Shown piece by piece: positions 53,843 through 63,985 of a stretch of 64,000 nucleotides of DNA (the stretch's first letter is position 1; each line of letters begins with the position of its first letter). A program made the position numbers and the translations under genes. The DNA is from Candidatus Saccharimonadota bacterium (GTDB lineage Bacteria > Patescibacteriota > Saccharimonadia > Saccharimonadales > Saccharimonadaceae): the NCBI GenBank assembly GCA_037138815.1, contig JBAXHQ010000001.1:35407-99406 (forward strand), in the 5' to 3' direction. The notes beneath the pieces are model-generated. The model saw nothing but the letters and a program-made list of their open reading frames with translations. It was not told the DNA's origin and did no database searches.

Positions 53843-54700
53843 TTACTTGATAGTCCATTGGTTGCCGCCTAGCGCACGGATTGTACCGGATATTTCTAAC
53901 ATAGTTATAGCCTGCATAAATTCGCTTGTTTCGACTTTTGATAATTTGTATAACTCATCACCATCACGGATGCCCGATTGCATTAACTCGATAATTTTTG
54001 ATTCTGTCGGATTATCACCCAGAGGTAACATAATCTGAGGTTTAAGCAGATCTGGGGCAATAATTTCCAAAACATCTTCAGCACACGTGATTGGGTGCGC
54101 ACCTTGTTTTATTAGATTATTACATCCAGCCGACAGAGGGCTGGTGATGTTGCCGGGTACAACGAAAACCTCACGACCCTGCTCGAGGGCGTGCATGACG
54201 GTTGATAATACGCCACTTCTAGTAGCTGCTTCGGTTACTATGATCGCATCAGATAGACCGCTAATTATACGATTACGTTCTATAAATCTAAAGATACGGG
54301 CTTCGGTCCCTGGTAAGTATTCGCTAACAATAGCGCCGTCATTATTTAGAATATCACTAGCTAAACCTCTATTCGTAGCGGGATAGATAGTGTCAACCCC
54401 GTTGGCTAAAACGGCCAGAGTTATACCACCAGCATCTAGTGCGCCGCGGTGAGCTATGGCATCAACACCCAGCGCTAATCCGCTAACTATAATTACTCCA
54501 TAACGCGCCAAATCGTAGGCTAATTTATATGTGACCTCTCTGCCGTAGTTAGTGGGTTTGCGTGAGCCAACTATTGCTACAGTACAGCGCCTAGTTTCAG
54601 GTAATTTGCCAATAAAATACAATTTTTTTGGACTTTTAGCAATAGTTCCTATGATCTGTAAGTAATTATTGTTAACTGGTGTTATTGCATTGATTTTCAT
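53843..54700 (-). CDS. dprA: DNA processing protein DprA
   Basis: VAIVGSRKPTNYG and SGLALGVDAIAHRGAL mark the Rossmann-like DprA core, with a C-terminal winged-helix-like tail. It lies directly upstream of topA. Confidence 0.88.
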   Translation of the reverse strand: MKINAITPVNNNYLQIIGTIAKSPKKLYFIGKLPETRRCTVAIVGSRKPTNYGREVTYKLAYDLARYGVIIVSGLALGVDAIAHRGALDAGGITLAVLANGVDTIYPATNRGLASDILNNDGAIVSEYLPGTEARIFRFIERNRIISGLSDAIIVTEAATRSGVLSTVMHALEQGREVFVVPGNITSPLSAGCNNLIKQGAHPITCAEDVLEIIAPDLLKPQIMLPLGDNPTESKIIELMQSGIRDGDELYKLSKVETSEFMQAITMLEISGTIRALGGNQWTIK

Positions 54701-54720
54701 ATAGATTATGTCAATAAGTG

Positions 54721-54749
54721 TTGACTTTAAGTCAAATACGTGCTAATAT
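54721..54749 (+). promoter_or_regulatory. Sigma70-type promoter (TTGACT-17-TAATAT) inside a palindromic -35
   Basis: The -35 is part of the palindrome TTGACTTTAAGTCAA, which also presents TTGACT on the - strand towards dprA. Confidence 0.55.
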
Positions 54750-54754
54750 CAGTC

Positions 54755-55007
54755 TCGATTGGTTACATTGCGAGATTAACCAAACGCACCTTATACCCCC
54801 TATTCTAACTTATGTTAGATTACATGCAATGTGTTTTAAGGTAGAATACCCTCCTTTCTTAAGACTATATAGCATTGCATGTATACTAACCCCTTTAACC
54901 GGCGAACATCTGCGATTCAATCGAGATCTGTTACGTTTACCCCTCGGGTGGGTTAAAGGGTAAAATACACCCACAGCGATGCCCACCCTTGCTGTGGGTG
55001 TTTTTTT
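54755..55007 (+). ncRNA. Candidate ~250-nt structured RNA, unclassified (ORF-less cassette)
   Basis: It has its own promoter and an intrinsic terminator (11-bp stem plus T7). Several 8-11-bp helices are readable by eye, and there is no SD-preceded ORF. Confidence 0.45.
54967..55007 (+). terminator. Intrinsic terminator
   Basis: ACACCCACAGC-(13 nt)-GCTGTGGGTGT followed by TTTTTT. Confidence 0.8.
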
Positions 55008-55020
55008 GCCCGCTCTATTA

Positions 55021-55078
55021 TTGACAAATTACGAATATGATGTTACTTTATATTCATTGTATATCCTATACAATGAAT
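55021..55078 (+). promoter_or_regulatory. Promoter (TTGACA-17-TACTTT) plus perfect 12-3-12 palindrome
   Basis: ATTGACAAAT is shared with the next cassette. The palindrome ATTCATTGTATA-TCC-TATACAATGAAT spans 55052-55078, within the transcribed leader. Confidence 0.5.
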
Positions 55079-55104
55079 CTTGAAATTAGAAAAGAGGTAA
55101 TACT

Positions 55105-55371
55105 ATGTGGGCTGTTGTCTCTATTGTAGCTATCCTGTACGTGGTTAGCTTTATCCTTTTTATTCGTTATTTAAGAAATAAGTCTAAAAAGAAATTCAAG
55201 GCATCAAAACTAGACCTGGCTCTTTTGGCGATATCGTTTATCGTGATTATTGGGCTATCGTATTTGGCTGGCATAATACCTACACCGCTAATTACTGGCC
55301 TAGGGGTCTTTATGACTGTGTATTGGTTTTTTATATTCATTTTCGTTTTATTAACGGTTTTGGATAACTAA
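55105..55371 (+). CDS. Small membrane protein (88 aa, about 3 TM)
   Basis: AAGAGG lies 7 nt upstream of the ATG. The protein has hydrophobic helices and a basic loop, RNKSKKKFKAS. Confidence 0.6.
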   Translation: MWAVVSIVAILYVVSFILFIRYLRNKSKKKFKASKLDLALLAISFIVIIGLSYLAGIIPTPLITGLGVFMTVYWFFIFIFVLLTVLDN

Positions 55372-55403
55372 AATTCCAATCTAGTTACCTTTTTTTCTAG
55401 GAT

Positions 55404-55465
55404 ATAAATGTCGAGTTTTACTCCATTTATTTTTTCACTAAACACCCTTTCTAGGGTGTTTTTTC
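55404..55465 (+). terminator. Two consecutive hairpins after the small ORF
   Basis: ATAAATG-(13 nt)-CATTTAT plus T5, then ACACCCT-TTCT-AGGGTGT plus T5. Confidence 0.6.
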
Positions 55466-55499
55466 TTGGTTTATGATGAGTTTAGTAAATAGCTTATCA

Positions 55500-55550
55500 T
55501 TGACAAATATTGACTAAGATGGTACAATCAGATTAGTTGCATTTATGCAA
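55500..55550 (+). promoter_or_regulatory. Promoter (TTGACA-17-TACAAT) plus palindrome TTGCAT-TT-ATGCAA
   Basis: It is paralogous to 55021-55078. The leader ...ATGCAATGAATATTTTACATAGGAAGAGGTG aligns with the previous cassette leader. Confidence 0.55.
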
Positions 55551-55581
55551 TGAATATTTTACATAGGAAGAGGTGTCTAAG

Positions 55582-55926
55582 ATGGGATTTGATATCATAA
55601 ATATCATCGTTCTATCAGCATTAGCTCTGGTATTCTTTATTTTTTATTCCTTGAAACTTTCCGAGAGAAAGTTTGGTGCCAGTTTTTTCTACTTAGGTAT
55701 GGTGGTCGTGTTATTCACTCAAGCCGCCAGGGTTGTTTTTACGAGAGTCGTAATAATAACCGCAACTACGCCTAACATAAAAAGCCTTGCGCCACTGGAT
55801 ACGATCTTTGGATGGTTAATGGCGTTAGGAGTTGTCCTGATTGTCATAGGCGGTCTAAAATCATTTCGTAGAAAGACTACCAAGCCAGCTCATATTGCGT
55901 CTATTAATAAACGCGACGTAAGCTAA
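55582..55926 (+). CDS. Small membrane protein (114 aa, about 3 TM)
   Basis: GGAAGAGG lies 8 nt upstream of ATG 55582; the ORF track opens at GTG 55573. The loop SERKFGAS resembles KKKFKAS of the neighbouring small protein. Confidence 0.6.
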   Translation: MGFDIINIIVLSALALVFFIFYSLKLSERKFGASFFYLGMVVVLFTQAARVVFTRVVIITATTPNIKSLAPLDTIFGWLMALGVVLIVIGGLKSFRRKTTKPAHIASINKRDVS

Positions 55927-55984
55927 TATCCTCCCCCTTTTAAGACATAAATATCGAGCTTTGCTCTGTTTATGACTTAAACCA

Positions 55985-56016
55985 AAGCGCTTCTTTTTTC
56001 AAGGAAGCGCTTTTTC
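55985..56016. terminator. Bidirectional hairpin terminator
   Basis: AAGCGCTTC-(10 nt)-GAAGCGCTT with T-runs on both sides, between the convergent small ORF and pth. Confidence 0.6.
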
Positions 56017-56022
56017 ATTTTT

Positions 56023-56589
56023 TCATAACAATTTATGGCTGGTTGGTTCTAGGCCGTCACGATAGAATTTGTTTATTAATTCTATAGTCTGCGGAATTAC
56101 TGACTCTTTTAATGTATCTAGTTCGTTAGCTTTGAATTTAGACAATACGAACGAGGCATCATTTATCCGACTATGGGATTCGTTTAGTATGCCTATCCTA
56201 ACGCGGGTATAATTCGGTTCGATGTGTGAATTTATAGATTTTATGCCATTATTGCCAGCATCGCTGCCTTGATTACGAACGCGAATCGTACCGAATGGTA
56301 GTGCCAGGTCATCGTGAATAACTAACAGATCACTAGATTGATTTATTTTGTAGAAATCGACGAGTTTTCGGATCGAAATTCCGGTTTCATTATAATAAGT
56401 GGCTGGCTTTACTAATAATACTTTTTCATCGCCGATGACGATTTCGGCGATTATGGCGTGGAATTTAGGTTTAGTAGCCCATTTAGCTTTTAATTGTTCG
56501 GCCATAGTATTCAATACTAAAAACCCGACATTATGACGTGATAGCGCATAATCTGGTTCGGGATTACCCTGGGCAAAGATGATTTTCAT
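56023..56589 (-). CDS. pth: Peptidyl-tRNA hydrolase
   Basis: MKIIFAQGNPEPDYALSRHNVGF matches the Pth N-terminus. 188 aa. Confidence 0.92.
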   Translation of the reverse strand: MKIIFAQGNPEPDYALSRHNVGFLVLNTMAEQLKAKWATKPKFHAIIAEIVIGDEKVLLVKPATYYNETGISIRKLVDFYKINQSSDLLVIHDDLALPFGTIRVRNQGSDAGNNGIKSINSHIEPNYTRVRIGILNESHSRINDASFVLSKFKANELDTLKESVIPQTIELINKFYRDGLEPTSHKLL

Positions 56590-63708: not shown

Positions 63709-63783
63709 TGGTGATCGTACCGGGAATTGAACCCGGATTGCCAGGATGAGAACCTGGTGTCCTAACCTTTAGACGATACGACC
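63709..63783 (-). tRNA. tRNA-Glu (anticodon CUC), CCA encoded
   Basis: Hand-folded cloverleaf: acceptor GGTCGTA/TACGATC, D-arm GTCT-AAAGGTTA-GGAC, anticodon arm CCAGG-TTCTCAT-CCTGG, variable CAAT, T-arm CCGGG-TTCAATT-CCCGG, discriminator A, then CCA. Confidence 0.9.
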
Positions 63784-63926
63784 ATAGGTATATTGTACTT
63801 TGTTTGGGGTTTAATTCCTTGTAGGGAATTGGTCACCTGTCATTTTCTTTGAAAATGCAGTCGACCCCGCCTCAGTCGGTGACGTTCGTCATCCGGCTTC
63901 CGGCCTTGCGACCCGCCGACGTGGCG
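63784..63926 (-). ncRNA. GC-rich, helix-dense spacer RNA between the two tRNA-Glu units (unclassified)
   Basis: It is clearly more GC-rich than neighbouring intergenic DNA. At least five hairpins and one enclosing helix are readable by eye (see findings). Confidence 0.35.
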
Positions 63927-63985
63927 GGTCTCACCCGGATTGCCAGGATGAGAACCTGGTGTCCTAACCTTTAGACGATGAGACC
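63927..63985 (-). pseudogene. tRNA-Glu(CUC)-like unit lacking T-loop and 3' T-stem
   Basis: A 47-nt perfect match to the intact tRNA (63933-63979 = 63731-63777). It has its own fully paired acceptor stem GGTCTCA/TGAGACC, exactly 12 nt of the T-arm are missing, and there is no CCA. Confidence 0.6.

Follow-up and report, generated by a model that had tools for sequence, protein, structure and literature searches.

A conserved structured RNA gene, as read from sequence, beside fast-changing membrane-protein cassettes between dprA and pth in Saccharibacteria

In Saccharibacteria and other bacteria of the candidate phyla radiation (CPR), genomes are tiny and hardly any regulatory RNA has been characterised. 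A short region in a 64-kb stretch of a Saccharibacteria (TM7) genome (hereafter the window, whose numbering is used throughout) raises the question of what kind of genes occupy the gap between dprA and pth. Three units lie there, starting at about 54721, 55021 and 55500, all on the + strand amid genes of the - strand, with topA and dprA on one side and pth and der on the other. The original prediction read them as three tandem paralogous cassettes, in each of which a leader segment would pair with a segment just after the stop codon, and took the first for a cassette whose open reading frame (ORF) was missing. Every sequence and coordinate that it quoted was found in place, and so were the orientation of the units, its promoters (TTGACT-17-TAATAT at 54721-54749, TTGACA-17-TACAAT at 55500-55528, and ATTGACAAAT at both 55020 and 55499) and its hairpin terminators: a consensus scan gives six terminator-like sites against 1.3 expected, with hairpins ending near 55002, 55461 and 56013. 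As for what these parts belong to, we consider it likely that the region holds two unrelated kinds of gene, namely a stand-alone structured non-coding RNA (ncRNA) in unit 1, and two paralogous membrane-protein cassettes in units 2 and 3 (cassettes A and B below), which sit in a permissive gap.

The first half of this answer comes from the conservation of unit 1. A blastn search over 80 pth loci recovered it in more than 60 of them, at 69-98% nucleotide identity over about 290 nt, the Pth protein of these loci being 52-80% identical; the same search found unit 2 in one locus and unit 3 in none. The best 80 Pth relatives are all Saccharibacteria, save a few bins labelled differently, and the window Pth shows no more than 80% identity to its counterpart in the closest species representative, a metagenome-assembled genome of Candidatus Saccharimonas. 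A profile search (nhmmer) placed the ncRNA in 75 of 85 loci taken from genome contigs or exact-protein look-ups, most of the ten others being contigs that end too early, and, among the matches listed, in 118 of 120 metagenome loci, which had been retrieved with a pattern from the 3' domain of the RNA. Overall, 194 of the 206 Saccharibacteria sequences examined carry it (the metagenome part, again, among the matches listed). Its surroundings are constant too: pth lies convergent downstream in 154 of 155 loci and dprA divergent upstream in 145 of 154, with a gap of 17-18 nt between dprA and the RNA promoter in 113 of those 145. The ncRNA was apparently inherited from the ancestor of the Saccharibacteria examined, and its place between divergent dprA and convergent pth is fixed.

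The structure of the unit is conserved as well. For 54750-55010, the minimum free energy fold has z = -7.5 when the + strand is taken, compared with z = -3.9 for the - strand. An alignment of 39 short-form sequences (A1) yields a consensus of 63 base pairs, 23 of them with compensatory changes, and 54 pairs are left once those belonging to the promoter DNA are removed. In this 54-pair structure, 97.6% of the cells form a standard pair, a share that falls to 32-46% once the partners are displaced by 1-3 columns, and 23 pairs are altered on both sides, against 2-8 with displaced partners, a number that none of 500 shuffles reached. The + strand is fixed for the ncRNA because several G-U pairs are invariant. 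In the window its parts are the following, with putative ends taken from the promoter and the T-tract:

54721-54749 (+): ncRNA promoter, with the -35 box TTGACT at 54721-54726, a 17-nt spacer ending in TGC and the -10 box TAATAT at 54744-54749
54721-54735: palindrome TTGACTTTAAGTCAA, of the form TTGAC-N5-GTCAA, which contains the -35 box of the ncRNA promoter
54757-55007 (+): structured ncRNA gene, short form, about 250 nt
54759-54765 with 54777-54783 (+): 5'-terminal hairpin P1, with a GCGA loop (GNRA type)
54786-54809 (+): conserved single strand GCACCUUAUACCCCCUAUUCUAAC
54814-54832 with 54872-54890 (+): long helix P2/P3
54848-54854 (+): apical hairpin loop ACCCUCC, which caps P2/P3 and contains UACCCUCC in every sequence
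54891-54900 (CCCUUUAACC) with 54951-54960 (GGUUAAAGGG) (+): invariant 10-bp helix P4, enclosing two hairpins
54967-55007 (+): intrinsic terminator, stem 54967-54977 with 54991-55001, then the T-tract
54978-54990 (+): 13-nt terminator loop GAUGCCCACCCUU, consensus GAWGCCCACCCUU

The promoter matches the consensus at 9 of 12 positions and has the TG; among 39 aligned species, its -10 box and the half-sites of the palindrome are invariant or nearly so, and the palindrome is single-copy in the window. At the other end of the gene, the terminator stem covaries (four pairs altered on both sides), and its loop is kept in all sequences, the sole variable position being the third base, U or A. This loop is complementary to a conserved GGGUGGG at 54946-54952, with which it could form a pseudoknot; both sides are invariant, save three sequences with GGGUGCG that lack a compensating change. 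The RNA has three conserved C-rich strands: ACCCCCUA; (C)UACCCUCC(A) in the hairpin loop, similar to the anti-Shine-Dalgarno sequence of 16S rRNA; and GCCCACCC of the terminator loop. The variable domain is the interior of P4. More distant Saccharibacteria have a long form of 340-450 nt, in which the invariant helix encloses an additional branched domain marked by two conserved motifs, GACUAUnCAGUAGUGA and CAGGCGCGCACCA; the long form was located on the - strand at L073:7077-7455 and also in L057, L058, L071, L034, L043, L074 and L077 (L-numbers are labels of the relatives' loci compared with the window). Either the clade of the window lost this extra domain or it never had it.

Two observations concern what else is written over this gene. 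Half of the palindrome reads TTGACT on the - strand, 19 nt upstream of a CATAAT that stands just ahead of the dprA start codon (54700). The palindrome geometry and the 17-18-nt gap suggest that dprA and the ncRNA share a bidirectional promoter, in which case the dprA mRNA would be leaderless or nearly so. In addition, an 81-amino-acid (aa) ORF with a GTG start overlaps the ncRNA gene (window 54718-54963, + strand; L081:2614-2859) and is called protein-coding in a public JGI metagenome record. This "hypothetical protein" looks like a mis-annotation, since the indels of the ncRNA alignment are not multiples of three. Correcting the public annotation on this point is, along with the ncRNA itself, which we regard as an undescribed RNA family, the most valuable outcome of the work.

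The second half of the answer concerns units 2 and 3, whose parts, together with the genes that flank the whole region, are these:

55021-55049 (+): cassette A promoter, TTGACA (55021-55026), a 17-nt spacer ending in TGT, and TACTTT (55044-55049)
55052-55078 (+): cassette A 5'-terminal hairpin, ATTCATTGTATA-TCC-TATACAATGAAT, a perfect 12-bp inverted repeat
55105-55371 (+): cassette A ORF, 88 aa, three predicted membrane helices
55385-55467 (+): cassette A 3' module, with the pyrimidine tract TTACCTTTTTTTC (55385-55397), a hairpin, and a terminator (55440-55461) plus T-tract
55404-55430 (+): cassette A 3' hairpin, ATAAATG-TC-GAG-TTTTA-CTC-CATTTAT
55500-55528 (+): cassette B promoter, TTGACA-17-TACAAT, 11 of 12 consensus matches, TG present
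55537-55550 (+): cassette B 5'-terminal hairpin, TTGCAT-TT-ATGCAA, homologous to the cassette A leader
55582-55926 (+): cassette B ORF, 114 aa from the ATG at 55582 (117 aa from a GTG at 55573), three predicted membrane helices and a basic tail
55930-56013 (+): cassette B 3' module, with CCTCCCCCTTTTAAGA (55930-55945), a hairpin (55946-55974) and a terminator (55984-56013)
55946-55974 (+): cassette B 3' hairpin, CATAAAT-ATC-GAG-CTTTG-CTC-TG-TTTATG
53843-54700 (-): dprA, the flank on the 5' side, with topA beyond it
56023-56589 (-): pth, the flank on the 3' side, with der beyond it

Both cassettes have a ATTGACAAA promoter with an extended -10 box and a 5' stem-loop within a few nucleotides of the predicted transcript start, followed by an A-rich stretch, a strong Shine-Dalgarno site, the ORF, a pyrimidine tract, a hairpin and a terminator, which in cassette B stands back to back with the pth stop codon at 56023. 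Their homology, as originally proposed, holds at both ends: the promoter and leader align over 31 nt at 77% identity and then over 26 nt at 73%, the leaders reach a local score of 36 against 16.8 +/- 2.6 in shuffles, and the 3' elements reach 32 against 16.4 +/- 2.7, with none of 500 shuffles attaining either score. Unit 1 does not belong to this family of paralogues. Set against the leaders of units 2 and 3, it scores no better than chance (p = 0.39 and 0.27), its likeness to the 3' element of unit 3 is weak (p = 0.09), and it resembles the 3' region of unit 2 in the terminator only. Of the 3' element once attributed to all three units, the part in units 2 and 3 stands. Unit 1 was also tried as a degenerate cassette and rejected, its profile matching nothing in 55013-56022. 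Rather than a leader and a 3' element left without an ORF, it is an independent and much older gene, which no cassette follows in 39 of 154 loci.

The regulatory ends of the cassettes are recognisable in relatives. The cassette A promoter, which was recognised by reading the letters themselves, aligns with that of unit 3 and with the cassette promoters of L001, L081, L100, L104, L129 and L140; the hairpin stem ATTGTA(T)/(A)TACAAT is retained in orthologues, and an equivalent 5' hairpin, of the UUGCAU/AUGCAA type, occurs in every cassette examined. The search for further copies, which had been proposed as a check, found the same architecture in tandem arrays, three cassettes in L140 and four, of looser layout, in L010; L001 and L081 have two, and L100, L104 and L129 one each. 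A leader profile matches only cassettes in this slot and nothing else in the window. The ATAAAT(G)..(C)ATTTAT hairpin was confirmed as a conserved structure, with 90% of its cells paired and 5 of 10 pairs compensatory in seven distinct copies; its conserved core consists of an outer stem, a UY bulge, a GAR/YUC inner stem and a UUUR loop. Units 2 and 3 account for the only two occurrences of the element ATAAATnTCGAGyTTTrCTC in the 64 kb, and the hairpin motif belongs to a narrow lineage, because a covariance model run over 0.93 Mb brought back nothing beyond its seed copies.

Some likenesses between the ends of the two kinds of gene were also seen. The cassette A terminator (CACCCTTTCTAGGGTGTTTTTT, 55443-55464) is 73% identical to the 3' half of the ncRNA terminator (CACCCTTGCTGTGGGTGTTTTT, 54984-55005), and the terminators of the cassettes in L001 and L140 (cassette 1) have ACACCC..GGGTGT in common, those of L081-L085 ACACCCC..GGGGTGT; a terminator may have been duplicated when the cassettes arose. 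The 5' hairpins of the cassettes are built on UUGCAU/AUGCAA-like or UUACAU/AUGUAA-like stems (55537-55550, 55052-55078, L010, L100 and L140).

The two encoded proteins have few relatives. The 88-aa gene is real, since its ratio of nonsynonymous to synonymous substitution rates (dN/dS) is 0.06-0.23 among four orthologues; its product has just two close homologue clusters among 5.8 billion. The 114-aa protein has no relative in those 5.8 billion clusters nor in 1.84 billion representative proteins, and BLAST links it, weakly, to two cassette proteins only, in the metagenome cassettes L100 and L140. AlphaFold2 predicts, with low confidence, three long helices for the 88-aa protein (predicted local distance difference test, pLDDT, 63.5) and three long helices plus a short C-terminal one for the 114-aa protein (pLDDT 67.9). 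The original reading of both as small proteins with about three transmembrane segments agrees with these models, three membrane helices being predicted in each; the similarity between the two is weak (24% mutual identity, E = 0.023). Neither protein matches a Pfam family at the gathering score or anything in PHROGs, PADLOC or NCBIfam; ten slot proteins had no match in PHROGs, and the best holin match is a sub-threshold Phage_holin_2 hit of one relative, at 22.3 bits against a cut-off of 32. As to gene calls in relatives, a 79-aa ORF is annotated on the - strand in L082:677-916 and L084:2100-2339, and in the near-identical DNA of L081, L083 and L085 a 123-aa membrane protein is called on the + strand instead; the + strand ORF is probably the real gene.

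The slot between the ncRNA and pth shows the same variability on a larger scale. Across 154 loci it is empty (less than 150 nt) in 39, holds small membrane ORFs (co-oriented, 75-190 aa, at least two predicted membrane helices) in 63, or 41%, and holds other genes in 52. Of the 63, 49 have one such ORF, 12 have two, and there is one case each with three and four. Most of these small proteins are not mutually alignable, and BLAST clustering leaves most of them as singletons: cassette proteins diverge beyond recognition, far faster than the non-coding flanks, which stay alignable. The turnover proceeds by whole cassettes and between close relatives: L001 has a version of the 88-aa gene with about 93% identity to the window copy, and as its second slot gene an unrelated-looking 123-aa protein, about 23% identical to the window 114-aa protein, with a different promoter region and 3' hairpin. 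In many long-form lineages (L089, L107, L123, L127, L148, L188, L194 and others) the slot contains, on the strand of pth, an ORF for a soluble protein of about 143-191 aa; in L017, L018, L022, L064, L075, L124 and L139 it contains a co-oriented gene whose product has about 250 aa and 6-7 membrane helices. Elsewhere in the window, beside tRNA-Glu at 63709-63783, a second, weak tRNA match (63926-63985, - strand; Rfam 33.9 bits, threshold 29) was not called by ARAGORN.

What remains of the pairings that gave rise to the first reading of the locus? They were held to occur at equivalent positions in every unit and to covary, as if each unit were a module that circularises its mRNA or occludes its ribosome-binding site (RBS) with its own 3' untranslated region (3' UTR). 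In unit 1, the 11-bp pairing of TACATGCAATG (54821-54831) with CATTGCATGTA (54873-54883) is helix P3 of an unrelated ncRNA (columns 148-159 with 226-237 of A1), and the covariation is genuine there, the enclosing 17-pair helix being 98.6% paired with 10 pairs altered on both sides. The 9-bp match of unit 2, TATATCCTA (55060-55068) with TAGGATATA (55398-55406), is marginal, equalled or exceeded in 5.6% of dinucleotide shuffles, and the 7-bp match of unit 3, ATTTATG (55541-55547) with CATAAAT (55946-55952), is at chance, with 28%. Between the window and L081 the 9-bp pair does change CC to TT together with GG to AA, but in the remaining close orthologues it shrinks to 6 and then about 5 bp; its 5' partner is already engaged in the 5' hairpin, and the cassettes of L100 and L140 gave no loop/3'-flank complementarity.

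A different duplex speaks in favour of such a module in unit 2. The best leader/3'-UTR duplex there, at -21.6 kcal/mol (p about 0.015 in the shuffle test), is formed by the ribosome-binding site UAGAAAAGAGGUAA and the 3'-UTR tract UUACCUUUUUUUCUA, not by the 9-bp partners named earlier, and the unit's own RBS/3'-UTR duplex (-14.9 kcal/mol) ranks third among 60 window genes. This complementarity is kept in the orthologues of unit 2, which are close relatives (15 bp with two G-U pairs in L081, read by eye), and cassette 1 of L140 has a 9-bp version, CCACUUUUU with AAAAGGUGG, likewise read by eye. Unit 3, however, has a best duplex of -13.8 kcal/mol, worse than the shuffle mean (p = 0.73), and ranks 22nd-25th among the 60 genes. 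Over 33 cassette genes, the RBS pairs with its own 3' UTR no better than with those of other genes (-15.3 against -14.0 kcal/mol), a control that is blind to a motif common to all members, for which the ranking against all window genes was added. Our conclusion is that the units probably share no covarying 5'/3' interaction, and we consider a family of pairing modules unlikely; occlusion of the RBS by the 3'-UTR pyrimidine tract is possible in unit 2 alone.

The other explanations bear either on the nature of the ncRNA or on that of the cassettes. An RNA of 250-450 nt that is near-universal in its group and has a strong, conserved promoter might be an extremely derived version of a universal RNA (6S, signal recognition particle (SRP), RNase P or transfer-messenger RNA (tmRNA)) that standard models miss. 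We hold this to be very unlikely: among the 4227 families of Rfam 15, whose models include 6S, SRP, RNase P, tmRNA, OLE, raiA and RsaE, unit 1 has no match at E <= 10 under permissive filters, not even a weak one to these universal RNAs. No match of the unit 1 RNA at the gathering score was obtained in the window or in 12 loci, and the long form gave terminator-level noise only (trpB, 23.5 bits against a threshold of 59). ARAGORN found no tmRNA in the window or in 10 loci, with no tRNA-like ends and no tag reading frame, and the motifs of SRP domain IV and RNase P P4 were not seen by eye in the invariant segments. 6S RNA was rejected as a candidate, the consensus being a row of independent helices (P1, P2/P3, the P4 domain and the terminator) without a 5'-3' closing stem or a central bubble. 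Searches of the literature by topic and by the invariant sequences found no description of it as an RNA; according to a 2022 transcriptome preprint, TM7x lacks validated small RNAs, and in the large motif surveys checked lysM-TM7 is the only motif named for this phylum, formerly TM7. Could the RNA instead be a cis-acting leader, a riboswitch or attenuator whose terminator governs read-through into the membrane-protein genes? It is co-oriented with the cassettes and has a terminator at its end, and the complementarity of the invariant terminator loop to the upstream invariant GGGUGGG would allow an alternative structure. It is nonetheless not the leader of a downstream gene, we think, because 39 of 154 loci have nothing between it and pth, its terminator abutting the stop codon of this convergent gene without any co-oriented gene. 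Furthermore, each cassette has its own conserved promoter right behind the T-tract, and it is the loop of the terminator that is conserved, whereas the stem, with which an antiterminator would compete, is free to covary. A leader function is highly improbable.

For the cassettes, small hydrophobic membrane proteins with strong promoters and highly structured mRNA ends recall type I toxin-antitoxin systems, in which the adjacent ncRNA, with its anti-Shine-Dalgarno-like loop, or an unseen antisense RNA would block the RBS of a toxin; the ncRNA and small membrane ORFs do adjoin in 63 of 154 loci. Yet the proteins have 88-150 aa and three helices instead of fewer than 60 aa and one, the 88-aa gene is under ordinary purifying selection, the ncRNA stands without a cassette in 39 loci and with other genes in 52, and it has no extended complementarity to the mRNAs. 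Antisense promoter matches are weak only, no antisense partner was found, and no toxin family of PADLOC, Pfam or NCBIfam was matched, all of which makes the toxin reading, also advanced in the original prediction, very improbable. Still further from what we observe is the proposal that the units are mobile cassettes with attC-like 3' hairpins, moved by a site-specific recombinase encoded elsewhere. Whole cassettes are indeed replaced between close relatives, they form arrays of 1-4, and an imperfect palindrome with a conserved bulge stands behind each ORF. But each has its own promoter, unlike integron cassettes, R''/R' core sites were not seen by eye in the window cassettes, the 3' hairpin is confined to one sublineage, and no recombinase or integrase gene was seen in the conserved flanks topA-dprA and pth-der. 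The swaps are explicable by recombination through those flanks without a dedicated system, and we regard such mobility as exceedingly unlikely.

Several points weigh against a stand-alone ncRNA unconnected with its neighbours. Transcription itself and the transcript ends are inferred from promoter and terminator consensus and its conservation. A universal RNA may escape the standard models in Saccharibacteria, since a complete Nanosynbacter genome was reported with only 2 annotated non-coding RNAs (PMC8830319), and the ncRNA could be that one. Its three C-rich segments pair with many ribosome-binding sites of the window, among which those of the cassettes rank 5th-21st of 60. The 5' hairpin stems of the cassettes resemble both strands of helix P3 (UUACAUGCAAUG / CAUUGCAUGUA), which could be chance, a shared protein-binding site or common descent, and the presence of small membrane ORFs beside the ncRNA in 41% of loci could mean a functional link. 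Because of this recurrence and of the UUGCAU/AUGCAA stems, we keep in view, as rather unlikely, that the ncRNA and the hypervariable cassettes are one Saccharibacteria-specific system, in which the ncRNA would co-regulate, or be tethered by, rapidly diversifying envelope proteins of an epibiotic lifestyle, with the slot set aside for their exchange. The idea that the ncRNA specifically targets the cassettes was rejected, the ranks above showing that its loop/RBS duplexes are not special for them. As this pairing is not preferential and the ncRNA occurs without cassettes in most loci, in our reading the cassettes came to lie beside it by inserting into a permissive gap that two convergent genes leave between them.

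On the reading of two unrelated kinds of gene, then, the ncRNA would act in trans, its C-rich loops pairing with G-rich ribosome-binding sites or titrating a factor that binds them. Between two genes that converge on each other and are strongly conserved, the slot would offer a permissive gap, occupied by cassettes that multiply by tandem duplication within it and are replaced whole by homologous recombination through the conserved ncRNA gene and pth. In the cassettes, the 5'-terminal hairpins may protect the mRNA from 5'-end-dependent decay, the 3' hairpins may serve as stability or protein-binding elements, and the proteins would be rapidly diversifying envelope components. The slot is a natural site of gene turnover, where membrane proteins are replaced faster than their regulatory flanks, and this bears on the variation of the epibiont envelope. 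The ncRNA, for its part, is a good candidate for a core function, being near-universal, 250-450 nt long and of fixed synteny, with invariant loops and strong covariation, and, since Saccharibacteria are now genetically manipulable, its function is testable.

The locus can finally be set beside systems known from other bacteria. Like integron cassettes, the units behind the ncRNA are tandem, exchangeable ORFs with an imperfect palindrome behind each; unlike them, each unit has its own promoter, attC cores (by eye) and an integrase were not seen, and the array lies between two housekeeping genes. The cassette proteins share with type I toxins and holins their short length, hydrophobicity, basic C-terminal tail and extremely diverse sequences, but they are larger than type I toxins, with no antisense RNA, no lysin gene at the locus and no holin family at threshold. 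An interaction between the 5' and 3' untranslated regions operates in icaR of Staphylococcus aureus, and the pyrimidine tract in the 3' UTR of unit 2 is similarly complementary to its own Shine-Dalgarno region; in contrast to icaR, unit 3 lacks such complementarity, and there is no family-wide signal. OLE RNA is a large structured ncRNA co-transcribed with a conserved membrane-protein partner, OapA. Our locus also joins a large, conserved, structured ncRNA to a co-oriented gene for a small membrane protein with several helices, although the membrane genes of the slot are hypervariable, each under a promoter of its own, and 59% of loci lack them, and there is no sequence or Rfam relation to OLE. 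The C-rich-loop small RNAs of Firmicutes, of the RsaE/RoxS type, are about 100 nt long, and their C-rich loops pair with G-rich Shine-Dalgarno regions. The ncRNA of Saccharibacteria differs from them in its 250-450 nt, its multi-helix core, its lack of an Rfam match and its group-wide fixed synteny, and it resembles them in being stand-alone, with its own promoter, an intrinsic terminator and conserved, unpaired C-rich loop motifs.

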